Positions 45,627 through 62,715 are shown, numbered from the stretch's first letter. The stretch is 64,000 bases of DNA from Bacteroidota bacterium (GCA_018267135.1 JAFDZA010000015.1:29402-93401), one strand, 5' to 3'. Notes: generated by a model from the sequence alone, not told the origin. Made by a program: numbers and translations.

Positions 45627-47477
45627 TTACACAATGGCGCAAGCTCCACCCGCACAGGCGGCCTCTGCTTGCAAGTCGGTAGCATCATCGGGCTCATACA
45701 CCAAAGAAAGATCAATGTTCTTCAGTGATCTTTCCAGTTCTTCATAACGTTCTTCAGAGATATCTTCAAAGGGAGGCTGTTTATAGTTTCCACTATCAAA
45801 CGGAAGTACACTCAAACCATTATACGAGGCTTTGTTTTCCCACATCCATTCGCCTACTAATTCCCATTCGTGATTTTTAATGGATACCGTAGCCGAAACG
45901 TTGTTTGCATTATATCCTAATCGATATCCGCTGCGTACCCATTCCAGATTAAACGCTTTAATTCGTTCCAGCAAGTCCATTACACTTTCTGTGCGCAGGG
46001 TACTGCCCGAAGGTGCTTTTTGAGGGATGCAAACTATACCTTGCTTACTGTTCAAGAGATCATCTTCTATTAATTCGGGATGCCGGATTTTTAAATATTC
46101 GTATAGGGCTTCATTTTTCCCAATACGCATACGCCTTAAATAAAAATCGTTGTGCCAGGCGTGGATACCCGATGAAGTTCCTAACACGAGCGAGCTGGTG
46201 CCCGATGGTTTGATGGTAGTGCAGCGGGCTGCAAATTCAATATTAATTTTTTTCGAGATTACCGTGTTAATGTGCTTTACTTCGGCTGCGGCCTCCAGCA
46301 GATCTAATTTTGATACGCGGTTGCTGGCTATGCCTGTCATCCCCACGCCAATGAGTGCATCTTGCTCGGTGGTTTGTTTCCATACATCGCGCAGGTAGTG
46401 AAAATCAGTAAAGCCTGCTTGTAAGGTTCCGAGAAAACTGGCGGCACGTGCCCGCGCATTTAGTTCTTCCTGCGTTTCAACATCGGAAACATTTATTTCG
46501 CATAGATTGCAAAACTGAAACGGCCTAAGGGCTATTTCACAGCAGGGATTCGTGCCCCAGTCAATGTGGTTGCTGAAATAGAACCCCGGCTCTCCGGCAC
46601 CCGATAGTTCAATTTTTTTCCACAGGGATAAAAATTCTTCTTTGGTAGTGTGTTCCCTCGAAAGCACCGCTGAGTTATTGGCCCGGCCTCGTTGTTCGTT
46701 TAGTTCCCACCAGTTGCCAAACTTGCATGTAAGCATTTCTTCATCTCCCGGTGTGAATAACGAGATCATGGCAGATCTGCGTATGCCACCGGCCAGAACG
46801 GCATTGGCAATGTAGCACATGATGTCGTGGCACTCGAGGGGAGTAAGCCGTTCGCCATCTTTTTTTCGGTCTAACACGGCCACGAGGTGGGCGTGGCAAA
46901 CCTTTAACGGTTCGGGGCCGGGAGCTTTCCCTCCGGCCGTTACTAAACGGGCCCCTTTGGGGCGGACATCCGAATAATCAAAATCGGGGTGTGCATCGCT
47001 TTGGCCAAAGTTTGCTTTCATAATCATTTTGATGGAGTCGGCCCATCCTTCCAGGCTATCACCAATTAAAAAGCGTCTATGTTTAGTAGCCTTTTTTATG
47101 AGAGGAAGTTTGGCCACATGATGTTGCTGAACGGAAAAACCAACACCGGTACCTCCCAGTAACAAGAACATGGCTTCAGAAAATGCCCGGATGTCATCTA
47201 CCGGCATGTAGGCACAATTGTATATGCGGCTGTTGTTTTTTATGATGGGGGCTCCGGCAAATTGCATGGCACGCATGGAAGGGAGCACTTTTTTCTGATG
47301 AACAAATTGCATCACATCGTGTATCTCCTCGGTCATGTGTGGATATTTGGCCGCCATCATTGATTCGTAGCGGTCGCAGATTTCACTCCATAGCTCTCTG
47401 CGTTGTAATTCGGGTAGATAACGAGCGTATTTCATGTGGATGACAATGTCGCTCAGGATCTCTTGGTTTAGTTCCAT
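45627..47477 (-). CDS. nrdJ: Class II (adenosylcobalamin-dependent) ribonucleotide reductase, short monomeric type
   Basis: 616 aa; PSMRAMQFAG, YNCAY, active-site finger GTNPCCEI, TIKPSGT, C-terminal CAGGAC redox pair; no ATP cone seen. Confidence 0.9.
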   Translation of the reverse strand: MELNQEILSDIVIHMKYARYLPELQRRELWSEICDRYESMMAAKYPHMTEEIHDVMQFVHQKKVLPSMRAMQFAGAPIIKNNSRIYNCAYMPVDDIRAFSEAMFLLLGGTGVGFSVQQHHVAKLPLIKKATKHRRFLIGDSLEGWADSIKMIMKANFGQSDAHPDFDYSDVRPKGARLVTAGGKAPGPEPLKVCHAHLVAVLDRKKDGERLTPLECHDIMCYIANAVLAGGIRRSAMISLFTPGDEEMLTCKFGNWWELNEQRGRANNSAVLSREHTTKEEFLSLWKKIELSGAGEPGFYFSNHIDWGTNPCCEIALRPFQFCNLCEINVSDVETQEELNARARAASFLGTLQAGFTDFHYLRDVWKQTTEQDALIGVGMTGIASNRVSKLDLLEAAAEVKHINTVISKKINIEFAARCTTIKPSGTSSLVLGTSSGIHAWHNDFYLRRMRIGKNEALYEYLKIRHPELIEDDLLNSKQGIVCIPQKAPSGSTLRTESVMDLLERIKAFNLEWVRSGYRLGYNANNVSATVSIKNHEWELVGEWMWENKASYNGLSVLPFDSGNYKQPPFEDISEERYEELERSLKNIDLSLVYEPDDATDLQAEAACAGGACAIV

Positions 47478-47559
47478 GATGTAGTGGGTTTAGTTGAAGT
47501 TTAAAAAAATGATTACTCAGGTTGTTCATGTGCCGGGTATGAAAAGAGGTTATGTATAT

Positions 47560-49923
47560 CTATTCTGCTTCGGTTACGGAAATCACAGTTTTGGCACTTC
47601 TAACGAAGGCATGGCTTTGGCCATTTCCATTTACAGTAGTTTTCTGTGGTTTTAAATTTTTTCTACGCGAAAGAATAAACCAAGTAAGTGGAATAACGCC
47701 CCCCAGCACAAAAATGGACCCGCCTACAATGCGCATCCACGTAAGCGTTTGAAATGCCTGGCTGTCAATAAACTCACTGCTGCGGGCAAACCATAATCCT
47801 TTTTTTATTACCACGCTGATTTGTAATAACCCGGCTGGAAATAGATCGAGTAATACCATTAACAGCAAGCCGATGTTAATACTCCAAAAAGCTATTGTAA
47901 TTAATTTTGGATTCCACTTAGACGATGTAAACAGAAGTTGACAGCAAAACAGCACAGCGGCCAGCGACAAATTTCCATACACACCCATTAAGGCCGCATG
48001 GCCGTGGTTTACGGTTAAGTAGGTGCCGTGTTCATAGTAATTGGCAATCGGCAGGTTAATGATAAAACCTAACACACCGGCTCCAAAAAAATTCCAAAAA
48101 TTGACGGCTACCAAAAAAAGAAACACCTGCGGAAATCCAAACGATTGGAGAGAGGAGGAAGGAACATTACCACTTAGCTGCTTGGGTAATTTTCTAAACC
48201 GCCAGGCCTCCAGCGTTAATAAAATCAAAGGCACTACCTGTAACGTAGAAAATACCGAACCAAGTGCCATGGTGAAAACCGGCTTGGCATTCCAATAGAA
48301 ATTATGTGAAATGCCTAAGAGCCCCGATCCCAGAAAAAGAAGACAGGCAATATAGATTACTCGCGTGGCTGCCTGCACGCTGACTAAGCCCATCAGCACC
48401 ATAAAATATCCGATCAGCACGGTGGTAAATACTTCAAAGAAAGCTTCAGCCCACATATGGATCACCATCCACCGCCAGAAGTCGGCAATGACAAAGTTGG
48501 TTTGAGGATTAAATAAAAATCCGGATACTAATAATAACAAGATACAAGCTGTGGTGTACACCAGCCAGTTGGGCAATGCCCATGGTTGTTTAAGGCTGAT
48601 GACCGGCTTCAGGCCGCGATAGAGGATTATCACCCAGGTTAAAAACACACTATACAGAAGCACTTGCCAGATTTTACCAGGCTCAAGGTATTCCCACCCT
48701 TGGTGGCCCAACCAATACCACTTTTCACCGGCCAAACCTTTGGGGCCTATAAAAATTCCCACTAACCCACCGGCTACTAAAACAACGATCATAACAAACA
48801 GAGCATTTACCCATTTTACCTGATTTTTAGGCTGCGCCTGACAAAGCATAGGCATTACAAACAAAGAAGCTCCAATCCAACAGGCGGAGATCCACAACAA
48901 TGAAAGTTGCACATGCCAACTTCGGGTAATGGTTATAGGGAGGGGCTCGGATATGTTAAATCCAAAGAAATTAACAAAGCCTACGAAATCGTGTACAGTT
49001 AATATGCCTGCCAATACCTGAACTGAAAACAGAATGATTGCGGCAAAGAAAAATTTGTAAGTAGCCCGCTGCAGCTGGCTGGGCTGAAAGGAGGAAACAT
49101 CTTGCCGCGTCATAAGGGGTGCGGCATTTTTAGTAAAAGAGGAGTCATCCAGTTTTTCCAGTTTTCCGTGGTAATACAGCACCAGCCCCAGAACAAGAAC
49201 AAGACCCAATGATCCGATAATACTCCAGGTTATTACGGCTGTGCTGGGTGTGTTTCCGGCTGTGGGGTCATAAGGCCAATTGTGTGTGTAGCTGTAATCT
49301 TCACCGGGCCGTTCTACTCCGCACACCCAGCTCCCCCAAAAGAAAAATGCAGTAAGCGATCTTATTTCATCAGCTCCTTTCATATACCGGCCCGGCTTAC
49401 CCGAATTTTTCCCTTCTGCACTCAGGTATTCTTGCTGATAGTATTTCTCTAATTCTTTTCCTGCAAAAGATTGGGCATCGGTTAAAGTTACGGTATTGTT
49501 GCCCGATTGGTAAGTGTTTGATTTTATTTCACGCTTTACCATTTCAGCTATGCCGTAGCGTTGCAAGGTTTGGTCGCCTGCATCGGTAGCGATTGATTTC
49601 AGGTAATAGTCTTTCATGAAAAAGGTTACCTGGTGCAGGGCTTCAGCGGTGTAGTCTGGCCCCCGATTGGCGCCATCGCCAAACATAGAGCCATATTCCA
49701 TCAGCCCATATTTTTGAAATACCTGTTGCCCGCTCATGATGTCAGCCTGCGAGAACAAGGTAACTCCATCTGCACTTTTAAAATCAGGAATAGGGGGGGC
49801 TTCCGTATAGGTATGCAGGCCTATCTGGGTTACCCCCATCAGGCTGACTACAAAAATTACAGAGAGGGAGATCCACCAATTGCGCGGCTTCAATAAGGAA
49901 GCCACAAAATCTTGCTTTGCCAT
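47560..49923 (-). CDS. Quinol-type NO reductase family protein with NO-dismutase (Nod)-like substitutions
   Basis: qNor architecture (YGSMFGDG, RSWHVQL, HMWAEAFFE, HGH) but SHNFYW, STLQVVP and RIVGG replace canonical HH, LE and GD. Start ATG 49923 (TAAGTTTG promoter element covers the ORF-track TTG). Confidence 0.9.
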   Translation of the reverse strand: MAKQDFVASLLKPRNWWISLSVIFVVSLMGVTQIGLHTYTEAPPIPDFKSADGVTLFSQADIMSGQQVFQKYGLMEYGSMFGDGANRGPDYTAEALHQVTFFMKDYYLKSIATDAGDQTLQRYGIAEMVKREIKSNTYQSGNNTVTLTDAQSFAGKELEKYYQQEYLSAEGKNSGKPGRYMKGADEIRSLTAFFFWGSWVCGVERPGEDYSYTHNWPYDPTAGNTPSTAVITWSIIGSLGLVLVLGLVLYYHGKLEKLDDSSFTKNAAPLMTRQDVSSFQPSQLQRATYKFFFAAIILFSVQVLAGILTVHDFVGFVNFFGFNISEPLPITITRSWHVQLSLLWISACWIGASLFVMPMLCQAQPKNQVKWVNALFVMIVVLVAGGLVGIFIGPKGLAGEKWYWLGHQGWEYLEPGKIWQVLLYSVFLTWVIILYRGLKPVISLKQPWALPNWLVYTTACILLLLVSGFLFNPQTNFVIADFWRWMVIHMWAEAFFEVFTTVLIGYFMVLMGLVSVQAATRVIYIACLLFLGSGLLGISHNFYWNAKPVFTMALGSVFSTLQVVPLILLTLEAWRFRKLPKQLSGNVPSSSLQSFGFPQVFLFLVAVNFWNFFGAGVLGFIINLPIANYYEHGTYLTVNHGHAALMGVYGNLSLAAVLFCCQLLFTSSKWNPKLITIAFWSINIGLLLMVLLDLFPAGLLQISVVIKKGLWFARSSEFIDSQAFQTLTWMRIVGGSIFVLGGVIPLTWFILSRRKNLKPQKTTVNGNGQSHAFVRSAKTVISVTEAE

Positions 49924-49941
49924 TACTTTAATATTGTCTAA

Positions 49942-49973
49942 CAAACTTAATAAAAGATAAATTAGTCCTGTAC
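49942..49973 (-). promoter_or_regulatory. Bacteroidota -7 element (49942-49949) plus adjacent putative Rrf2 operator (49950-49973)
   Basis: Minus-strand TAAGTTTG; ATAAAAGATA-AATT-AGTCCTGTAC shares 17 identical bp (GACTAATTTATCTTTTA, reverse strand) with the 53403 site. Confidence 0.7.
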
Positions 49974-50004
49974 TAAATCAAGCTATTTTTTTATTTTGAC
50001 AGGA

Positions 50005-51015
50005 TTATTTCAGCCAGCCGTTTTGTTTATACCAGGCAGCTGTTTCGCGAATGGCATCCGCTAAATGGTAGCGAGGCTGAAGGCGGGTTTCTTCCCATAC
50101 GGGGCGGCTGTTGCAAGCCCAATTAACGGCCGAGATTTCAGTCAGTTTTTCAGAGTTGAGGAACCGTGTGTTCCCCGAGTGTGCCAGCCATTTTTCATGA
50201 GTCTTAACAATAGCCTGCAAAGGTTTTAAGGGTACTGAAAGTCGTATTGTTCTTTTGTTTAGAGCCGATCGGATGATGCCGTTCAATTCTTCGTTGGTGT
50301 AGTGCTGCCCGTCCGAAACCAGAAATGTTTGGTTGGCTGCCGGCTCTTTAAGCAAGGTAATGGCGATGTGCGAAAAATCTTTTACATAAATGAGAGAGAG
50401 TATTTGCCGGTGGCTCCCCAGGGTAATCTCAAATCCATGGTTAATCATTTTAAACAATCGTAAAAAATCTTTATCACGCGGGCCAAAAACAGCGGTAGGT
50501 TTTAGAATGGTAGTAGGAAAATATCCGGATGATTTCACAAATTCTTCTGCCATTTTTTTACTCCGGGCATAAGCCGATACCGGGCACTCGTCATCCGTTA
50601 CGTCAATCGGCTTAAGTGTAATAGGGCAGCCCGGCCCATACGTAGCCAGCGAACTGATCAGCATGAAGCGGGTAAGCGGCATGGCCGTGCGATGCAGGGC
50701 CTTCATCAGGTTTTTTGTGTACAGACAATTTACCTCATAAAATTCATTTGGATGATGAGCAGAAGTAATGCCTGCATTATGAATGACATAGTCGAAAGAA
50801 CCATGTTGGATTTGAAAATCGGAAAGGGCTTTCGTCAACTCATCGGGTGCGGAGAGGTTCAGTTCAAGTAACTGAATATTGTATAGATTTAAAAATTCTA
50901 AACGGCTTGATTTCCGGATGCCGGCATAAACCTCAAGCCCCTGCCGGATAGCTTCTTCCACTAAAAAACTACCTATAAAACCGCTGGCTCCTGTGATAAG
51001 GATTTTCCGGCTCAT
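50005..51015 (-). CDS. NAD-dependent epimerase/dehydratase (extended SDR); candidate ceramide/3-oxoceramide reductase
   Basis: GASGFIG, HNAG, SSLA, YARSK (YxxxK); ATGA-coupled to the GNAT gene in an operon with spt. Confidence 0.75.
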   Translation of the reverse strand: MSRKILITGASGFIGSFLVEEAIRQGLEVYAGIRKSSRLEFLNLYNIQLLELNLSAPDELTKALSDFQIQHGSFDYVIHNAGITSAHHPNEFYEVNCLYTKNLMKALHRTAMPLTRFMLISSLATYGPGCPITLKPIDVTDDECPVSAYARSKKMAEEFVKSSGYFPTTILKPTAVFGPRDKDFLRLFKMINHGFEITLGSHRQILSLIYVKDFSHIAITLLKEPAANQTFLVSDGQHYTNEELNGIIRSALNKRTIRLSVPLKPLQAIVKTHEKWLAHSGNTRFLNSEKLTEISAVNWACNSRPVWEETRLQPRYHLADAIRETAAWYKQNGWLK

Positions 51016-52136
51016 CGAATTGACTTAAAATAACACCGCCTGCGTTTGTGCTGTTCTGTTTCAAAGTAATCCCACATGGCTTGCACTTTTGTATTTTTTT
51101 CCAACTCGGGATTGGTTTCGGCATATTCTACTCCGTGTTTAATGCACGATTTGGTTAGTTCATCAATAAGAATGGCGTTAACGCCTTTCCCCTGTAGATC
51201 GGGCCGTATGGCTACGATATACAAATCAATAATATTATTTTTTCGCAAGGCTTTAAGCAAATGAAAAATGCCAAACGGAAAAAGTTGGCCATTGGCTTTT
51301 TGCAGGGCTTTTGATAGGGAGGGCATGGTAATGCCAAAGGCAGCTAATTTTCCGTCATGGTCAGTAATGAGCGATACAAAATCTGTTTTGATGAATGAAA
51401 AGTATTGCTGTGTATAGTAATCGATTTGCTTATCGGTTAAGGGCACTACCCCAAACAGATCGGCATAGGTAATATTAATTAGTTGAAAGACATCTTTTGC
51501 GTAGGGTAAAACATCTTTGGCTCTGCGTAATTTTACCACTTGCAACTGGCATCGTTTTTTTACCAATGAAGCAATACGCTCTAAGTTTTCGGGTGGTTGT
51601 TTAGGAAGATGAATCAGGTACTCTACCCAGTCGGCCTCTTTTTGGTAGCCCATTTCTTCCATGTATTTTGGGTAGTAGGGATGGTTATAAATGGTAGCCA
51701 GTGTACCTACCCGGTCATACCCCTCTACCAGCATACCTTCGTGGTCTAAGTCGGTAAACCCCATGGGGCCGTGCACGGCTTCCATATTCATTTCGCGTGC
51801 CCACGATTCTACTTTGGCTAACAGTTCTTCAGCTACACCCCGGTCATCTACAAAATCAAACCATCCAAACCGCAAGTAATTTTTTTTCCATTTTTCAATA
51901 AAAGCATGGTTTAAGATGCCTGCTATACGCCCGGCTACCCGGCCGTTTTTATAAGCAAGCCAATACCGGGCTTCACAATAGTCAAATGCCGGGTTTTTTT
52001 CTTTGCGCAATGTATTGAGTTCGTCAAACTGCAAAGGAGGTACGTAATAAGGATTTCCCTTATACAAGTGGTATGGAAAATTAACAAAGTCTTTAAGTTC
52101 TTTAGAGGATGATACTTCTTTTACCAGTAAACTCAT
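51012..52136 (-). CDS. YghO-like GNAT-fold protein; candidate bacterial ceramide synthase
   Basis: FVNFPYHLY...YVPPL, RFGWFDF, VHGPMGFTDLD, YNHPYY motifs; 8 bp downstream of spt. Confidence 0.7.
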   Translation of the reverse strand: MSLLVKEVSSSKELKDFVNFPYHLYKGNPYYVPPLQFDELNTLRKEKNPAFDYCEARYWLAYKNGRVAGRIAGILNHAFIEKWKKNYLRFGWFDFVDDRGVAEELLAKVESWAREMNMEAVHGPMGFTDLDHEGMLVEGYDRVGTLATIYNHPYYPKYMEEMGYQKEADWVEYLIHLPKQPPENLERIASLVKKRCQLQVVKLRRAKDVLPYAKDVFQLINITYADLFGVVPLTDKQIDYYTQQYFSFIKTDFVSLITDHDGKLAAFGITMPSLSKALQKANGQLFPFGIFHLLKALRKNNIIDLYIVAIRPDLQGKGVNAILIDELTKSCIKHGVEYAETNPELEKNTKVQAMWDYFETEQHKRRRCYFKSIR

Positions 52137-52144
52137 AGCTACGG

Positions 52145-53362
52145 TTAGATGATTTCCAGTTTTCGGGAGATGGAATAGATTTTTGAAAGAGCACGGTCTA
52201 TTTGCTCAAAAGTGTGCGTGGCCATCAAACTGAACCGGATCAACGAACTATCGGAAGGCACCCCGGGCGAGCAAACCGGATTTACGAAAACACCTTCATT
52301 TAGCAACCGGATGGCTAACTGAAAAGTTTTTAAATCATCGCGCACATAGATGGGTATAATGGGAGTACAAGAGTGGCCCAGATCAAACCCCATTTGTTTT
52401 AAATTTTGTAAAGCATAGTGGGTGTTATCCCACAAACGCTCGATGCGTTCCGGTTCTCGTTTTATAATGTTCAGGGCTGCCCGGGCACTGGCTGCGGCAG
52501 GGGGCGATATACTGGCGCTAAACATGAGCGACCGGGCATGATGTTTCAAAAAATTGATAACTGATTTATCGGCCGCAATAAACCCTCCGATGGAAGCCAA
52601 TGATTTGCTGAAGGTGCCCATGATTAGATCTGTCTTTCCGGTCAGGCCAAAATGCGAAGCTGTGCCGCGGCCGCCTTGCCCGATTACGCCCAGTGCATGG
52701 GCATCGTCTACCATGATGTTTGCCCCGTACTGCTCGGCCAGCTTTGCTATTTCCGGCAGATTGGCAATATCGCCATCCATGCTGAAAATCCCATCCACTA
52801 CGATCAATTTAATTCGATCGTCATCGTGCGATTGCAAAATTTTTTCGAGCGAAGCCATGTCGTTATGCTTAAACTTCAGCGTTTTACTGAAACTCAGACG
52901 GCTCCCTTCAATAATGGATGCATGGTCTAACTCATCCAGAATTAAACAATCGTGGCGGTTCAGTAGTGCGGGAATCACCCCAATGTTTACCTGAAAGCCC
53001 GTGCTAAAAACTAAAGCAGCCTCTTTACCCACAAACTCGGCCAGTTGCTCCTCCAAATCAAGATGAATGTCTAAAGTACCGTTTAAAAAGCGTGAGCCGG
53101 CACAGCCTGTGCCATATAGACGAACCGCTTCATTGGCAGCCCACTTTACTTCCGGATGGTTGGTAAGCCCCAAATAACTGTTAGAACCGAACATAAGAAC
53201 CGGTTTTCCGTCAATCATCACTTCCGTGTCCTGATCCGACTCAATCACCCGAAAATAGGGGTAAAGCCCAAGCCGTTTCAGATTATCGGGCAAATCAAAA
53301 TCGGTGGCTCGCTGCACCAGCCGGTTCTTCCGGGTAGCCGGGCTTTTCAATAAAGTGTTCAT
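52145..53362 (-). CDS. spt: Serine palmitoyltransferase (alpha-oxoamine synthase family)
   Basis: GLYPYFRVIESDQDTEV, MFGSNSYLGLT, DHASII, DDAH, PLP lysine in GTFSKS; N-terminus resembles Bacteroidota SPT rather than BioF. Confidence 0.8.
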   Translation of the reverse strand: MNTLLKSPATRKNRLVQRATDFDLPDNLKRLGLYPYFRVIESDQDTEVMIDGKPVLMFGSNSYLGLTNHPEVKWAANEAVRLYGTGCAGSRFLNGTLDIHLDLEEQLAEFVGKEAALVFSTGFQVNIGVIPALLNRHDCLILDELDHASIIEGSRLSFSKTLKFKHNDMASLEKILQSHDDDRIKLIVVDGIFSMDGDIANLPEIAKLAEQYGANIMVDDAHALGVIGQGGRGTASHFGLTGKTDLIMGTFSKSLASIGGFIAADKSVINFLKHHARSLMFSASISPPAAASARAALNIIKREPERIERLWDNTHYALQNLKQMGFDLGHSCTPIIPIYVRDDLKTFQLAIRLLNEGVFVNPVCSPGVPSDSSLIRFSLMATHTFEQIDRALSKIYSISRKLEII

Positions 53363-53390
53363 GAATTTATTTTTTTATGTAAAAAACAGT

Positions 53391-53426
53391 CAAAAATAAA
53401 TAATAAAAGACTAATTTATCTTTTAA
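53391..53426. promoter_or_regulatory. Divergent promoter: spt -7 element (53391-53398, minus) and putative Rrf2 operator (53403-53426)
   Basis: Minus-strand TATTTTTG; palindrome ATAAAAGACT-AATT-TATCTTTTAA. Confidence 0.7.
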
Positions 53427-53480: not shown

Positions 53481-53864
53481 ATGAAAATTTTTGCTGGTTG
53501 TTTAATTGTTTCGTTTTCTGTTTACTCGGCCGTGATCTATTGGCTGCCGAATACGGAAGCAGCTATGCTCCCTAAGGCGGTTGCCGGAAAAATGGTATGG
53601 CAACAAAAAAACTGTGTGGCATGCCATCAGATTTACGGATTAGGCGGCTTCTTGGGGCCGGATTTAACGAACGTATATTCGGGTAAAGGGCCTGATTATA
53701 TAAAAGCTTTTGTGCAGGCAGGCACTATTACGATGCCCGCCTTTAATCTGACAGACGAGGAATTGGAAAACCTAACATCTTTTTTGCAACAGGTGGATGC
53801 CTCAGGATACTCTGATCCCCGAAAACACAAAATAAATTTTGATGGAACAATTGAAAGAAAATAA
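53481..53864 (+). CDS. NorC-like membrane-anchored monoheme cytochrome c
   Basis: One N-terminal TM helix, GKMVWQQKNCVACHQIYGLGGFLGPDLT, distal MP. Confidence 0.85.
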   Translation: MKIFAGCLIVSFSVYSAVIYWLPNTEAAMLPKAVAGKMVWQQKNCVACHQIYGLGGFLGPDLTNVYSGKGPDYIKAFVQAGTITMPAFNLTDEELENLTSFLQQVDASGYSDPRKHKINFDGTIERK

Positions 53865-55227
53865 ACTGCCCCCCCCCAAACGCCTGATTATTACCGGTAT
53901 GGTAATGTTGGTAGTGGGTATGTTTTTTGGTGTGATAGGAAGTTTGCAATATGTTAGCCCGGGCTTATGGAAGAGTATTTTATCCTTTGATAAAGTAAGA
54001 CCGCTCCATGTTTCGTCTATTGTATTTTGGATATTGCTGACGGCCTCGGGAGGGGTGCTCACTTATGCCGGTGAATATGCAGGACGCCTTTTTTCTACGC
54101 GCTTATCCCAATTTCAATGGCTCTTTTTTTTAGTGGCTATAGTAGCCATCGGTATTAGTTATGTAAACGGAGTTTTTGGCGGCCGGGAGTATTGGGAGTG
54201 CCCGCCCATACTGGCTCTCTTTGTTGTTGCCGGTTGGCTGCTGTTTGCCATCAATATTATTGGCACCCTCCGCACATTAAAAAATCAACCGGTATATGTC
54301 TGGATGTGGCTTACGGGAGCTGTTGGATTTTTACTTATTTTTTTAGAATCCTATTTATGGCTGCTGCCGTATTTTCAGCAAACTATTGTGCGTGATATGA
54401 CGGTGCAGTGGAAATCGTATGGCTCGATGGTAGGTTGTTGGAATATGCTGATTTACGGATCGGGTATATTTCTTATGGAAAAAATCAGTTGCGATCAATC
54501 GTATGCTCGTTCGCGCATTGCTTTTGTCCTTTTTTTTCTTGGACTGATAAATCTGATGTTTAACTGGAGCCATCACATTTATATATTGCCTATTCAGCCT
54601 GTAATTAAGCATATCGGCTATTTAATCAGCATGACCGAGCTGTATATTTTAGGGCGTATTATTTATAAATGGAAAGAATCGTTGAGCTCTGTTCAAAAGT
54701 ATAAACACTTACTTGCTTTTCGTTTTTTATCGACAGCCGATGTATGGGTTTTTATTAATCTTGGGTTGGCTATCCTTATGTCGGTACCGGCCGTAAATCT
54801 ATACACGCATGGCACGCACATTACAGTGGCACATGTTATGGGCACTACCATTGGCATTAATTCTATGATTTTGATGGCCGTTGTTGTAGATGTGTTGGAG
54901 GGCACGTGCCTTAGCTTAGCCGCGATGCGCAATCGTATTTCAACTTGGCTGCTGGTGGCCAACGTTGCGCTCGTTGTTTTTTTTGGTTCGTTAATTACAG
55001 CCGGGGTATTGCGGGCACGCTGGCAGATGAGTAACCAAACCATTCCGTTCGGAGAAATGATGAAAGGACTTGCTCCCTATTTTGTTATTTTTTCTATTTC
55101 AGGCATTATTCTGTTTGTCTGTTTTTTTGCTATGGTTTTCCTTGTATTGAAAAGTACACTAAGTTGTTATTTTTACCGATCCTCCGTTCAGGAAGTGCGC
55201 CTAAAATCGCAGTGGCAATTAAAATGA
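53842..55227 (+). CDS. Atypical heme-copper oxidoreductase subunit I (NorB-like) with non-canonical metal ligands
   Basis: About 12 TM; RPLH, GREYWE, NWSHH, MTE and HGTHITVAHVMG motifs; helix VI reads QWKSYGSMVGCWN with no His. Confidence 0.82.
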   Translation: MEQLKENKLPPPKRLIITGMVMLVVGMFFGVIGSLQYVSPGLWKSILSFDKVRPLHVSSIVFWILLTASGGVLTYAGEYAGRLFSTRLSQFQWLFFLVAIVAIGISYVNGVFGGREYWECPPILALFVVAGWLLFAINIIGTLRTLKNQPVYVWMWLTGAVGFLLIFLESYLWLLPYFQQTIVRDMTVQWKSYGSMVGCWNMLIYGSGIFLMEKISCDQSYARSRIAFVLFFLGLINLMFNWSHHIYILPIQPVIKHIGYLISMTELYILGRIIYKWKESLSSVQKYKHLLAFRFLSTADVWVFINLGLAILMSVPAVNLYTHGTHITVAHVMGTTIGINSMILMAVVVDVLEGTCLSLAAMRNRISTWLLVANVALVVFFGSLITAGVLRARWQMSNQTIPFGEMMKGLAPYFVIFSISGIILFVCFFAMVFLVLKSTLSCYFYRSSVQEVRLKSQWQLK

Positions 55228-55655
55228 TATCGGTTACTAAAATATTCCGTTTTGAAGCGGCTCATGCCATCTATGCTTACCCGGGGCCGTGTGGCCATAT
55301 TCATGGCCATTCGTATGAGTTACACGTTACCGTTAGTCATCGGCATTATGAAAATAAATACTTGGAAGGGCAGGGGATGATTATTGATTTTAAGGAATTG
55401 AAAAAACGGGTGATGGTGAATGCCATTGATATGCTGGATCACAAACTGATTTTGTCAGACACCTTTCTGAGTCATTCTACTCAAACTTTCGATACAAATC
55501 AATTGGTAATTTTTCCGGTTGAGCCTACGGCCGAGAATATGCTGATTTTTTTGCGCGACCGAATTTCGGCAGTATTACCCGATGAAATTTTATTAGATTC
55601 ACTGAAGTTGTGGGAAACACGAGATTCCTATGCCACCTGGACAACCGATGTGTGA
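55224..55655 (+). CDS. queD: 6-carboxytetrahydropterin synthase (PTPS/QueD family)
   Basis: FEAAH, CGHIHGHSY (CxxxHGH), IDFKELK, PTAEN, LWET; ATGA overlap with the upstream gene. Confidence 0.85.
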   Translation: MISVTKIFRFEAAHAIYAYPGPCGHIHGHSYELHVTVSHRHYENKYLEGQGMIIDFKELKKRVMVNAIDMLDHKLILSDTFLSHSTQTFDTNQLVIFPVEPTAENMLIFLRDRISAVLPDEILLDSLKLWETRDSYATWTTDV

Positions 55656-55663
55656 AGTTCGCT

Positions 55664-56128
55664 TCATCTTATCATCCCTTTCATGTTTCCAAGTTTGTAG
55701 TTTTTTAAATAGGTTTTCCCTTTTACAAACTCGTCTCTCAATTCCTGAATTGTCTTTTTAAGCAGAATATCGCGCAACCGGGTTTTGCTTTCTTTTACTT
55801 GCCAATGTACCGGGCACGGAAAGGTATCGGAACACTCCTTTAATCCTAACACACAAGATTTTAATATATCGGTGCCATCAATGGCTTTCACGATAGAATT
55901 CAGCATAATAGGTTTGGCTTTGGGTTTGACATAAAAGCCGCCATTGGGACCTTTTGAGGAAGAGATAATTTTCTCGCGTACCAGAGTTTGAAGAATTTTG
56001 GCAGTAAACGATTGGGGCGAATCAGCCTCTCTCGCAATTTCTTTTACACTTAGCTTGGCACCATCGGCACTGCGTATAACAATGTATAATACTGCCCGAA
56101 TAGCATACTCGCATGCTCTTGAAAACAT
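55664..56128 (-). CDS. Rrf2-family transcriptional regulator (three Cys)
   Basis: MFSRACEYAIRA, SSKGPNGGF, CVLGLKECSDTFPCPVH. Start moved to ATG 56128. Confidence 0.92.
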   Translation of the reverse strand: MFSRACEYAIRAVLYIVIRSADGAKLSVKEIAREADSPQSFTAKILQTLVREKIISSSKGPNGGFYVKPKAKPIMLNSIVKAIDGTDILKSCVLGLKECSDTFPCPVHWQVKESKTRLRDILLKKTIQELRDEFVKGKTYLKNYKLGNMKGMIR

Positions 56129-56207
56129 AGACCGTTGGATTAAGAATAGATGGGTTCTCCCCGAAAGATAAAAATAACTTCCAAGAATATTCCCATACCG
56201 CAAAAGG

Positions 56208-58013
56208 TTAAGATACTTCTACTTTGGGCATCATTATTTCATACTCTTGGTGCAGTCGCTTTTCAGCCAGATCTATTCCATTTCTGATTCGGTTTTTAAG
56301 CTCATTTTTAAAGTCAACCCCAGCTATAAGTTCCCGGTAATAAAGTATGCCGTTCGAAATGTTTTGATATACATTTTGCACATATTTTACAGCCTTTTCA
56401 TCGAAAGTTTTGTGTGTCTTTTCAATAAGCTCTACGAGGTAGTCAATGTAGAGTGAAAGTTCCTTCACAAACATATTGGGACGCTTAGGGTCAGTAGGAA
56501 TGCCTACTTTCCCATAGATATGGTCGAGCATTTCCTTTAGTGAAACAATTTTTGAGAAGTAAGCAATATTAGGCCCCGGGCAAATATCTACCGATTCCAG
56601 TTTTTTAATGGGCTTCAGTTCATATTTTTTAATGGCTGCGTTGCTCAAACCGATGCAGAGACACTCTTTATCCAGTACGTCCTTTTTTTGCCGCTGAAAT
56701 TCTTCTTCGGGCAGGTTGAGCGAATGAAGCTGCTCCAATTTTTTCTTTTGATAGGTATGCGATGCCGTGCAAATAGGCTCGGTGGTAAATTCTGTGTTAG
56801 ACACTAAATATTTTTCGGTGCAAGGGCTTCCCGGTTTTCCTTTTTTTATACGTTCAAATTTTTCCAATTCGCCCGAGGTCCCTTTCAGGTAATGGAACCG
56901 AATACCCAGCGGTGAGTTTTTACTTAAAAAAACATCTTGTTCGGTAGCCCGGCTCAGCAGATTCAGAGTTGAGTCGTCAACGGTGGTTGCCTCGGGCACC
57001 AGTAAAAAGGGGGTTCCCCAGCCGGTGCTGTTTACCCCATAGTAGCTTCTCAGAAACTGATCTTCATCAGCTGTGCCTATGCCTCCCTGAACAGAGATAT
57101 GAATAGATGGGGCATAGGGCAATTGCCTTTTACCTTTTGTATGTAGTGCCTGATTGTACAGATTAAATAATTCACGGATTAACTCCTGACGTTTCAATTT
57201 GAATTCTTCCAAAATAGGCCCTATTAGATACCCATCGGTAGCAAAGGCATGCCCCCCGCAGTTTAAGCCGGATTCTATTCTAAACTCACTAACCCAAAGA
57301 CCCTTTTTGGCCAGCATTTTACCCTGCACATAGGCCGAACGGAAATCAGAAACTTTAATGATAATTTTTTTATCGAATACCCCGTTCGTGTCGGCATCAA
57401 ATGCCGAAAGTGTTTCCATGTAGTTGAACAGCCGAAGGTTTAGCCCGGCCGAGAGAACCACTGAAGAGTGGGAGAGGGTACTTTTAGCATATCCCCTAAG
57501 AGCGGTTACGGCATCGGACCCGTTTTCGATAACGTTTCCGTTGACATCTTTTGTATTCCGGTCCAGTTTAGTCATAATATTTACATCAATACTTCCGGCT
57601 ACGATTTGTCTGCGCAGCCACTGACTCAACTGTTCTTTTTTTTGGGGTTCAGTGGTGGTAGTCATTTGCCGGTAAACCCGATAAAGCCAACTGCTGCCCG
57701 GCTGCATTTCAAAATATTTATCTATTTCTAAACTTTCTCCGAACGGTTGTTTTTTAAGTTGCTCTATTTGCTCGGATACCATTCGCTGCACCAGATTTAA
57801 GTAATCCGTTATGCGTTTGGCCCGGTAATCTGCTTCTTTTGAAGAGATGGGGTAATAGTTTTCCTTTTTTAAGTGGTAATAATACCCTCTCATTTTTTCA
57901 ATAAGATTATCTTCGATAATTGACATTACCGATGAAATACCAAATCGAGCCACCTTTACGGGAGTGTCAATAGTGTAAGCCAGCCCCATTACCGGAATAT
58001 GAAACGAATGCAT
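56208..58013 (-). CDS. Uncharacterised protein with nitronate monooxygenase/FabK-like flavin-barrel motifs and a Cys-rich C-terminus
   Basis: ESGLNCGGHAF, VQGGIGT and GWGTPFL resemble EGxxAGGH, AGGI and GTRF; Cys in PCTEKYL, PICTAS, ECLCIGL, ICPGPN. Start ATG 58013. Confidence 0.6.
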   Translation of the reverse strand: MHSFHIPVMGLAYTIDTPVKVARFGISSVMSIIEDNLIEKMRGYYYHLKKENYYPISSKEADYRAKRITDYLNLVQRMVSEQIEQLKKQPFGESLEIDKYFEMQPGSSWLYRVYRQMTTTTEPQKKEQLSQWLRRQIVAGSIDVNIMTKLDRNTKDVNGNVIENGSDAVTALRGYAKSTLSHSSVVLSAGLNLRLFNYMETLSAFDADTNGVFDKKIIIKVSDFRSAYVQGKMLAKKGLWVSEFRIESGLNCGGHAFATDGYLIGPILEEFKLKRQELIRELFNLYNQALHTKGKRQLPYAPSIHISVQGGIGTADEDQFLRSYYGVNSTGWGTPFLLVPEATTVDDSTLNLLSRATEQDVFLSKNSPLGIRFHYLKGTSGELEKFERIKKGKPGSPCTEKYLVSNTEFTTEPICTASHTYQKKKLEQLHSLNLPEEEFQRQKKDVLDKECLCIGLSNAAIKKYELKPIKKLESVDICPGPNIAYFSKIVSLKEMLDHIYGKVGIPTDPKRPNMFVKELSLYIDYLVELIEKTHKTFDEKAVKYVQNVYQNISNGILYYRELIAGVDFKNELKNRIRNGIDLAEKRLHQEYEIMMPKVEVS

Positions 58014-58034
58014 TTTTTTATTTTTTTGAACATG

Positions 58035-58073
58035 CAAAGATACAATAAAAGATAATTTTATCCTTTATTTTTG
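58035..58073. promoter_or_regulatory. Divergent promoter pair flanking a putative Rrf2 operator (58045-58068)
   Basis: Minus -7 TATCTTTG (58035-58042), plus -7 TATTTTTG (58066-58073), palindrome ATAAAAGATA-ATTT-TATCCTTTAT. Confidence 0.72.
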
Positions 58074-58103
58074 CAAAAACAAAAACAGATTAAGATAAAG
58101 GAG

Positions 58104-58763
58104 ATGGAGAACAAACAAAATGGAGAGGTACTACAAACTACGAAAGAAGAGATAGCCAATACTGTAACTCATGGTTTGGCCATTGCTTTGAGCCTGGTAG
58201 GGGCCGTTTTTATCTATCATTGGCTAGCCGCTGATCCGGGTTCTGGTTGGCGAAAATGGTTTTCGGGCAGCGTTTACCTGTTATCGCTTATTATTTTATA
58301 TACAGCTTCTACTCTATACCATGCTGTAAATAACCTTAAATGGAAGCAATTCTTGCGCATAGGCGACCACAGTGCTATTTATATTAAAATAGCCGGTACC
58401 TACACTCCTTTCCTTCTTTTGGCATTTCCGTTAAGTAAAGGCTTGCCGTGGCTTGTGTTTTTATGGGTATTGGCCGGAGCCGGAATTGCCTTTAAAGTTT
58501 TTTTCACAAAGCGCTTTAGTGCCATTTCCGTGCTATTGTATTTGTTTATGGGCTGGACGGCCTTGTTTATGATTCACTCGCTGTACACGGCTGTTTCTTC
58601 TCCTGTATTTTGGTGCATCTTGGTGGGTGGACTTTTTTTCACATCCGGCTTACTTTTCTTTTTTGCTAAAAAAATACCTTATCATCATTCCATCTGGCAC
58701 CTATTCGTTATGACCGGCAGTGCGTTTCATTATGCCGGAATCTTTATGCTTTTTTTTAACTGA
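58104..58763 (+). CDS. Hemolysin III / PAQR (TrhA-like) membrane protein
   Basis: EEIANTVTHG, STLYH, DHSAIY, IAGTYTP, HSIWHLFV; AAGGAG just upstream of ATG 58104. Confidence 0.92.
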   Translation: MENKQNGEVLQTTKEEIANTVTHGLAIALSLVGAVFIYHWLAADPGSGWRKWFSGSVYLLSLIILYTASTLYHAVNNLKWKQFLRIGDHSAIYIKIAGTYTPFLLLAFPLSKGLPWLVFLWVLAGAGIAFKVFFTKRFSAISVLLYLFMGWTALFMIHSLYTAVSSPVFWCILVGGLFFTSGLLFFFAKKIPYHHSIWHLFVMTGSAFHYAGIFMLFFN

Positions 58764-62276: not shown

Positions 62277-62280
62277 ATTG

Positions 62281-62715
62281 ATGTTAAGCCTGAGTTGTAA
62301 AGCTTCTATTAAAGCCGTTGTGTATTTAGGCTCGAAGCTGAAACCCGATGAGCGAGCCGGCATTAAATCGGTGGCCCGGTTCATTAATGAAAATGAACAT
62401 ACCGTAGGGAAGATACTACAAAAGATGGTAAAGGCTAATATTATCCACAGCACCAAAGGCCCCAACGGAGGATTTTATATTTCTGCCAAGCAAAAAAGAA
62501 TACCGGTTATGGCCATCGTTCATGCCATTGATGGCCAAGGCGTATTTAATCAGTGCGGGCTGGGCTTTAGTAAATGCAGCGACTCGCACCCATGCCCGCT
62601 TCATACCGATTTTAAACCCGTGCGCGAACAGTTTAAAGAGATGTGCAGCAACAGCACGATAGAAACCCTTTGCTCTCGGGTAGATCAGGGAATCGCTATC
62701 TTAATGAGAAAGTAA
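62281..62715 (+). CDS. Rrf2-family transcriptional regulator (three Cys), second copy
   Basis: STKGPNGGF, CGLGFSKCSDSHPCPLH. Confidence 0.92.
   Translation: MLSLSCKASIKAVVYLGSKLKPDERAGIKSVARFINENEHTVGKILQKMVKANIIHSTKGPNGGFYISAKQKRIPVMAIVHAIDGQGVFNQCGLGFSKCSDSHPCPLHTDFKPVREQFKEMCSNSTIETLCSRVDQGIAILMRK

Follow-up and report, generated by a model that had tools for sequence, protein, structure and literature searches.

In a 64,000-nucleotide stretch of a 3.41-Mb, 30-contig Bacteroidota genome (GCA_018267135.1; contig C6:29402-93401, referred to below as the window), three adjacent genes very probably form a ceramide-making operon, to judge from sequence. They encode a serine palmitoyltransferase (Spt), a tandem-GNAT protein predicted to be a ceramide synthase and a short-chain dehydrogenase/reductase (SDR) predicted to be a ceramide reductase. 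The reading that we favour overall, and regard as probable, combines this ceramide operon with an Fe-S-type repressor of the Rrf2 family that links it to genes for the handling of nitric oxide (NO). The pathway itself is ordinary and known, and its packaging is unusually compact for the phylum. The predicted Rrf2 regulon wiring common to ceramide and NO-handling genes is new within the literature that we searched, and has cross-validated comparative support.

A predicted three-gene ceramide operon

The operon is encoded on the minus strand. Its first gene, spt (positions 52145..53362, 405 aa), specifies a pyridoxal phosphate (PLP)-dependent alpha-oxoamine synthase; it is followed by a bcerS-like gene (51012..52136, 374 aa) for a tandem-GNAT N-acyltransferase of the YghO/CC_1154 family, and by a cerR-like gene (50005..51015, 336 aa) for an extended SDR of the NAD-dependent epimerase/dehydratase family. 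A first-pass annotation, made by a model from the sequence alone, had described three tightly linked genes with an 8-bp gap and an ATGA overlap, situated between two Nor-like loci. The open reading frames and their junctions bear this out: spt ends with ...ATC ATC TAA, followed by CCGTAGCT and then ATG AGT, which gives an 8-nt gap, and the GNAT and SDR genes share an ATGA stop/start overlap (...ATT CGA TGA GCC). A qNor-type gene and a NorCB-like gene pair flank the trio.

In the proposed pathway, Spt would turn serine and an acyl thioester into 3-ketosphinganine, the GNAT enzyme would N-acylate this intermediate, and the SDR would then reduce the 3-keto group, giving dihydroceramide as the predicted product. 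We infer the order, acylation before reduction, by analogy with Caulobacter and Bacteroides fragilis. The E. coli yghO gene cluster served as a bridge to the Caulobacter-type enzymes. When its Spt, YghO and reductase were searched against the whole genome, the best matches were the three adjacent genes of the window, in agreement with the earlier suggestion that the three ceramide steps are encoded in one operon. Queries with the dedicated acyl carrier protein (ACP) and acyl-ACP synthetase of the E. coli cluster found no counterparts in the whole genome, and the operon would thus represent a minimal, three-gene form of the pathway.

By its sequence, gene 1 is a true serine palmitoyltransferase and the only one of this genome. 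It scored 668.1 bits with the NCBIfam equivalog model NF047600 (SerpalmtaseCFB; cut-off 640) and was the only alpha-oxoamine synthase of the genome to exceed the cut-off, the other three reaching 208-328 bits; this cut-off leaves out many probable Spts, which limits co-occurrence by the model to close relatives. Residues 12-404 aligned with the Sphingobacterium multivorum Spt structures 3A2B/8GUH at 512 bits, and identity to the E. coli Spt was 38%. The segment GTFSKSLAS aligns with the PLP-lysine motif, and MFSASISP with MFSASMTP of the S. multivorum enzyme, placing an alanine at the position of SulA Lys281, which separates Spt (Ala) from cysteate acyltransferases (Lys) (PMC9304779). The remaining alpha-oxoamine synthases are a clear Kbl, a BioF-like enzyme and a SulA/CapB-type cysteate acyltransferase. 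The first-pass annotation had considered the operon a second, inducible copy beside a housekeeping spt; the count of spt paralogues that it proposed as a check returned a single Spt, and this idea was dropped.

Gene 2 is predicted to encode a bCerS-type ceramide synthase. Its product aligned with E. coli YghO over residues 5-373 (YghO 10-380; 26% identity, 154 bits, E 1e-47), and the best match of YghO in this genome is the window GNAT. In a published comparison, yghO (ECD_02850) is listed together with Caulobacter CC_1154 as the acyl-CoA N-acyltransferase gene 'aca', later cerS (PMC9386255). E. coli strain 300709 has, divergent from yghO, a series of genes annotated as spt, acyl carrier protein, NAD-dependent epimerase/dehydratase and fatty acyl-AMP ligase. 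The family PF00583 covers residues 244-354, i.e. the C-terminal half, as a weak Pfam match, and a QGKG acyl-CoA motif is present; NCBIfam gave no match and the PDB no sequence relative. An alignment-based AlphaFold2 model (pLDDT 88.7) has a tandem GNAT fold, and its nearest PDB structures are the tandem GNAT N-acyltransferases 2WPW, 5KF1, 7Q3A and MshD (TM score 0.55-0.60, 10-14% identity). The protein has more than 7,700 close relatives, and 6,284 representative clusters were found at E ≤ 0.001.

Gene 3 is predicted to encode a CerR-type reductase, CerR (CC_1164 type) being an NDUFA9-like extended SDR. The protein matched PF01370 (E 1.5e-31) and contains GASGFIG at residues 9-15, corresponding to the NAD(P)-binding GxxGxxG, as well as YARSK, corresponding to the catalytic YxxxK. 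It aligned over its full length with the reductase of the E. coli cluster (residues 1-323 versus 1-300; 24% identity, 91.7 bits), whose gene, ECD_02852, is listed together with CC_1164 as the reductase gene (PMC9386255). The E. coli reductase has its best genome match in the window SDR; the next match, of 72 bits, is partial, and the margin is modest. With the model NF049977 (cut-off 400) for KdsR, the 3-ketodihydrosphingosine reductase type of B. thetaiotaomicron BT_0972, the window SDR scored 28.5 bits and the best protein of the whole genome 108.6 bits, i.e. the genome encodes no KdsR by this model. Caulobacter CerR was reported to be periplasmic (PMC11087976). Unlike it, the window reductase appears to show no sign of export, as judged by eye from the translation: the Rossmann motif begins at residue 8 without an N-terminal extension, and no classical signal peptide is visible.

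Several observations weigh against these assignments. A paralogous YghO-family gene in the genome scores 131 bits to YghO versus 154 bits for the window GNAT, the GNAT and SDR proteins share no more than 24-27% identity with the proteobacterial enzymes, and members of the extended SDR group broadly resemble each other.

Gene linkage was examined in 79 loci encoding a relative of the GNAT protein. In approximately 55 of them, the GNAT gene is immediately preceded by spt and immediately followed by the SDR gene on the same strand; these loci belong to Chitinophagaceae, Cyclobacteriaceae, Sediminibacterium, Flavisolibacter-like and Ferruginibacter-like bacteria and one member of the Prevotellaceae. 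Three genomes of the same genus (G171, G311 and G379) lack spt, the orthologous GNAT gene and the gene of the candidate regulator, Rrf2a, and have kept only a GNAT paralogue of 24-28% identity, from which we conclude that, within the genus, this segment of the island is an accessory one. By contrast, two family members that do carry an Spt-like gene (G199 and G215) have a GNAT protein of 42-46% identity encoded ∼1 kb from spt. Where the GNAT gene is unlinked, 9-10 of 12 genomes possess an Spt-like gene elsewhere (Chloroflexota, Paludibacter, Prevotella, Ferruginibacter). Taken together, homology, linkage and co-inheritance make the designation 'ceramide operon' well supported. In the nearest public relative (locus L013, metagenome-assembled genome SZAS-69), the gene order is identical and protein identity is 83-98%.

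The best-known counterparts are the ceramide genes of Caulobacter crescentus and E. coli B, namely spt (CC_1162), cerS/bcerS (CC_1154 = CCNA_01212; yghO in E. coli) and cerR (CC_1164 = CCNA_01222). The window encodes the same three enzyme families, and here, too, the proteins are soluble or peripheral, with no apparent transmembrane segments. Unlike these systems, however, the genome lacks the dedicated ACP (AcpR) and acyl-ACP synthetase (AasR), and identity to the Caulobacter/E. coli B enzymes is only 24-38%. In Rhodobacteria, cerS is said to be always in a different operon (PMC11324152), whereas here it lies within the spt operon. Within the phylum, B. fragilis offers spt, cerS (BF9343_4218) and cerR (BF9343_4240), with the same pathway logic as in the window, and knockouts in this species validated the homologues of Caulobacter CerS and CerR (bioRxiv 10.1101/2023.05.23.541633). 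Of 61 Bacteroidaceae genomes, 60 encode a GNAT homologue (55 of them just one copy; 41-54% identity) and 57 an SDR homologue (mostly 32-39% identity). Bacteroides genes are dispersed (PMC11334938), and the Bacteroidaceae GNAT and SDR homologues lie 14-425 kb apart, as opposed to the compact operon found here. The same Black Sea metagenome study used the co-localised Spt-bCerS-CerR trio as a marker of sphingolipid producers, and reported that the three genes are not close in sphingolipid-producing Bacteroidota (PMC11334938); we found them adjacent in Chitinophagaceae, Cyclobacteriaceae, Sediminibacterium, Ferruginibacter-like bacteria and one member of the Prevotellaceae. The literature is thus to be corrected: dispersal of the ceramide genes is not universal among Bacteroidota, and spt and cerS can be part of one operon.

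Two other chemistries have to be weighed against the proposed pathway. As in eukaryotes, the SDR could act first and reduce 3-ketosphinganine to sphinganine, which the GNAT enzyme would then acylate. Such an order was the first to be proposed for Caulobacter (PMC11324152; PMC9386255) and is used by B. thetaiotaomicron with a separate KDSR (bioRxiv 10.1101/2023.05.23.541633); moreover, no SDR signal peptide is visible, so both steps could be cytoplasmic. However, cerR knockouts of Caulobacter and B. fragilis pile up oxidised ceramide (PMC11087976; bioRxiv 10.1101/2023.05.23.541633), and the window SDR is not of the KdsR type, which is absent from the genome; we consider reduction before acylation unlikely here. 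The operon might also make a sulfonolipid of the capnine type, or another N-acyl amino-ketone lipid, instead of ceramide. Bacteroidota sulfonolipids are formed by an Spt-like enzyme followed by reduction and N-acylation (PMC9304779), and the same enzyme classes would serve. This product was rejected as highly improbable on account of the alanine of gene 1, its score to Spt as compared with 249 bits to SulA (7U7H), and the presence elsewhere of a separate SulA/CapB-type cysteate acyltransferase gene (G000:C4:33984-35114, minus strand; locus L003:1450-2808). The latter protein scored 579 bits to 7U7H and has the diagnostic lysine (YAKSLP), and each of the 15 relatives tested carries its gene, even where the trio is missing. 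With ceramide as the favoured product of the operon, the organism would thus probably produce sphingolipids and sulfonolipids alike.

The genome contains a second tandem-GNAT gene of the YghO family (G000:C2:48259-49374; locus L012:4257-5426), the product of which is 24% identical to the window GNAT and scores 131 bits to E. coli YghO. Its homologues occur, like the SulA/CapB-type gene, in all 15 relatives tested, spt-less ones included, and its neighbours encode a PAS histidine kinase and a GCS2-family ligase. We regard it as a candidate for the N-acyltransferase of the sulfonolipid pathway. As to yghO itself, 4,549 of the 5,426 complete E. coli genomes carry the gene. In E. coli K-12 (L092, NC_000913.3 3129043-3131340), IS5 abuts its 5′ end, and the spt, ACP, epimerase and acyl-AMP ligase genes are missing from the position where strain 300709 (L093) has them beside yghO.

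An operator palindrome at spt and NO-related genes

The window contains three copies of a palindrome with the consensus AArGAy-N6-rTCyTT, far more than expected by chance; the degenerate 18-mer has no perfect match in the 3.41-Mb genome other than the window copies. Operator a (53406..53423; AAAGACTAATTTATCTTT) lies between spt and the divergent NorCB-like operon. It scored 23.2 bits with a matrix trained on spt-upstream sites and 20.8 bits with a matrix of non-spt sites (both described below), ranking second in the genome with either. Operator c (58048..58065), between the operon of Rrf2a and a 609-aa protein (unk609) and the TrhA-RIC operon, is the best site of the genome (24.3 and 25.5 bits respectively). 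The weaker operator b (49953..49970; 18.1 and 15.7 bits) precedes the qNor-type gene, within the 60 nt that separate it from the SDR gene, and is followed by TAAGTTTG.

A Bacteroidota -7 promoter box of the TAnnTTTG type was predicted for spt by consensus match at 53391..53398 on the minus strand (TATTTTTG). Along the spt strand, operator a is followed by TATTATT and then TATTTTTG. The first-pass annotation had put the -7 element 4 bp from the palindrome, which was approximately right: the box was measured to lie 7 nt away from the 18-nt core, or 5 nt away when a 22-nt palindrome is assumed. All three window copies have a TAnnTTTG-type box within 0-7 nt in at least one direction, and this position fits a repressor. 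A sigma-70 promoter scan was uninformative here (20 sites found versus 24 expected).

Upstream of spt in other genomes, too, the palindrome comes before a box of the -7 type, which matches TAnnTTTG fully or nearly; in locus L068 the palindrome is a perfect AAGGACAAATTTGTCCTT. We built a first matrix from the spt-upstream sites of other genomes; it yielded 37 matches in 1.15 Mb of loci, all but one of them at regulon genes. By gene, and counting a match between two genes for both, these were spt (21), the NorCB-like pair (9), unk609 (7), a PTPS gene (6), Rrf2a (4) and qNor (3). As a safeguard against circularity, a second matrix was made from ten non-spt sites, excluding this genome and its near-twin L013, and applied with a threshold of ≥ 14 bits and ≤ 450 nt upstream. 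Of 57 loci, 27 had such a site before spt, as compared with 0 of 57 size-matched coding controls. Equivalents of operator b precede qNor in L013, L069 and L080. The claim that spt is wired to a palindrome common to NO-related genes, already made in the first-pass annotation, thus gains from the fact that the operator is kept before spt in many other genomes.

A strict IUPAC pattern was weakly enriched, with 12 sites in 9 other genomes versus 6 for the reversed control; seven of these sites are at regulon genes, one is by a pyridine-nucleotide-disulfide oxidoreductase gene and four appear unrelated. The oxidoreductase site, a perfect palindrome (AAGGACATTTTTGTCCTT) in a Chitinophagaceae genome (L097; G474:C1:3838580-3838597), lies upstream of the gene, which may be a further regulon member, e.g. 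for a NorW-like reductase. Two genome-wide operator candidates, at C4:54832 (beside a caspase-domain gene) and C5:443770 (intragenic), were dropped as chance matches.

There are also points that weigh against operator control of the trio. Roughly one in two trio loci lacks both the operator and a nearby Rrf2a gene, and G199 and G215 carry spt without linked Rrf2a; the wiring would therefore be lineage-specific. Operator a serves the divergent promoter too, and its effect on spt in this genome is argued by analogy with other genomes.

The candidate regulator and its signal

The likely binder of the palindrome is Rrf2a, a predicted Fe-S-type Rrf2 transcription factor encoded at 55664..56131 on the minus strand (likely start Met25). 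The protein matched PF02082 (76.8 bits) and TIGR00738 (79.3 bits, cut-off 73.3) and contains three cysteines in the C-x7-C-x5-C arrangement of cluster-binding Rrf2 proteins (CVLGLKECSDTFPC). An Rrf2a homologue is encoded 1.4-4 kb from spt in approximately 30 loci. Operator-bearing loci mostly have a nearby Rrf2a gene, whereas operator-less loci do not, and the operons that contain Rrf2a are themselves preceded by operators. We prefer Rrf2a as the candidate to Rrf2b, a second Rrf2 paralogue of the window (62278..62715).

In the regulation that we propose, the operon is read from a Bacteroidota-type promoter, with the 18-22-nt palindrome covering the region just upstream of its -7 box. Four other units carry the palindrome at their promoters as well: the NorCB-like pair, the qNor/NOD-type gene and the operons unk609-Rrf2a and TrhA-RIC. 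An Fe-S Rrf2 protein would presumably act there as a repressor, and loss or nitrosylation of its cluster would derepress ceramide synthesis and NO-handling genes together. We infer NO as the signal from regulon content alone (qNor/NOD type, NorCB-like, RIC): in this window as well as elsewhere, the operator precedes qNor, the NorCB-like pair and the TrhA-RIC operon. The physiological rationale offered in the first-pass annotation, i.e. altered membrane permeability to NO/O2 or a supply of lipid for membrane enzymes, is speculation.

The closest known parallel is NsrR, the Rrf2-family [4Fe-4S] NO-sensing repressor of hmp, norB and ytfE/ric. As in NsrR regulons, a three-Cys Rrf2 protein is found together with a promoter-overlapping palindrome and with an NO-reductase-type gene and RIC as targets. 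However, the regulon described here also holds a sphingolipid operon, a PAQR/TrhA gene and a 609-aa protein, and the window operator has a 6-N6-6 geometry, unlike the enterobacterial NsrR site, which is 11-1-11. Nor is Rrf2a an NsrR equivalog (29.3 bits with NF008240, cut-off 182); by the curated models, it is not NsrR, IscR, RirA or CymR at equivalog level, which weighs against the proposed regulator, as does the fact that Rrf2b could be the palindrome binder instead.

Two further explanations concern the regulation. In this genome, control by the palindrome might be limited to the divergent NorCB-like operon and the remaining NO genes, with spt being constitutive. The site lies in a 118-nt intergenic region with two divergent promoters, where 52 and 66 nt separate its centre from the ATG codons of spt and the cytochrome c gene, respectively, and in Sediminibacterium-type loci (L032, L037 and L074) it is 29-39 nt from the cytochrome c gene and ∼335 nt from spt. 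Against this, the upstream gene is co-directional with spt in five loci with a site (Rrf2a in L034 and L090, unrelated genes in L085, L052 and L046), so that spt has the only promoter that the site can serve; moreover, the TAnnTTTG box adjoins operator a on the side of spt, and a fully matching box is missing on the cytochrome c side. We therefore consider a constitutive spt improbable. The other explanation accepts operator and regulator but takes the signal read by Rrf2a to be the status of Fe-S clusters, iron, oxygen or the redox state, and the regulon to be a general remodelling of envelope and respiration for microoxic or denitrifying growth. Rrf2a scored higher with the SUF-regulator (50 bits) and IscR (47 bits) models than with that of NsrR, all of these values being far below the cut-offs. 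In many genomes, the local core consists of spt-GNAT-SDR, PTPS, unk609 and Rrf2a, with no NO reductase within 10 kb, and the regulon includes TrhA, a membrane-homeostasis protein. On the other hand, nearby NO genes do bear the operator, as seen for qNor in the three loci named above and for the NorCB-like pair in nine, and operator c directly precedes the TrhA-RIC operon, whose RIC passes TIGR03652 (234 bits, cut-off 205). An Fe-S, redox or oxygen signal is thus a serious alternative to NO, if on balance the unlikely one.

As for novelty, our literature search found no paper tying Rrf2 or NO regulators to sphingolipid genes, and none that describes a transcription factor for the core genes of sphingolipid synthesis in Bacteroidota; in the comparative NO regulon study by Rodionov et al., the term Bacteroidetes has 0 occurrences. 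We tentatively suggest, as a generalization that may well fail, that in Chitinophagales/Cytophagales-type Bacteroidota an Fe-S Rrf2 repressor co-regulates de novo ceramide synthesis with NO reductase-type enzymes, RIC, PAQR/TrhA and the 609-aa protein. If true, sphingolipid envelope remodelling would be built into the nitrosative or microoxic stress response as an inducible component, and the repressor may be the first transcription factor to be described for the core sphingolipid genes of the phylum. Bacterial sphingolipids shape outer-membrane properties and host interactions, and little is known of how their synthesis is regulated. The hypothesis is concrete, in that it defines an operator of 18-22 nt, names an Fe-S protein as the candidate regulator and comprises few target genes, kept across many genomes; why and when environmental Bacteroidota make ceramide thereby becomes directly testable. 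For specialists in sphingolipids or NO signalling, the link is unexpected but not revolutionary.

Other genes of the locus

The qNor-type gene (47560..49944, minus strand) encodes a 794-aa protein with NorB_cytochrome_c-like and COX1 domains and starts 60 nt downstream of the SDR gene. No terminator-like hairpin was found between the SDR stop codon and this gene, and transcripts from the spt promoter may therefore run on into qNor, which also has an operator and a promoter of its own. A class II ribonucleotide reductase gene lies downstream of qNor on the same strand (window 45627-50004), and long read-through transcripts starting at the spt promoter are possible.

On the other side of the trio, the NorCB-like pair starts at 53481, divergent from spt, and comprises a 127-aa c-type cytochrome and a 462-aa COX1-family protein. 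Beyond it come, first, a QueD/PTPS-like gene, Rrf2a, the gene of the 609-aa protein without a family match, TrhA/PAQR and RIC; further on, the window encodes DUF1858/DUF2249 proteins, another COX1-like membrane protein, a DUF59-type protein and the second Rrf2 protein.

The gene of the Cys-rich 609-aa protein (unk609, 56208..58037) is predicted to be co-transcribed with Rrf2a; searches of Pfam, NCBIfam and PDB sequences gave no match for its product. It is preceded by an operator here and in at least seven other genomes, and is often found just downstream of the spt trio. TrhA/PAQR, of the hemolysin III family (58071..58763; NF011669 207 bits, cut-off 80), is encoded directly after operator c, and HlyIII homologues are also found at operator sites in L013 and L100. 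Eukaryotic relatives of the PAQR proteins include ceramidases, and co-regulation of TrhA with ceramide synthesis may be meaningful. The QueD/PTPS-like gene (55164..55655) is the most constant partner of Rrf2a, and in many Chitinophagaceae loci the PTPS-Rrf2a pair is divergent from spt.

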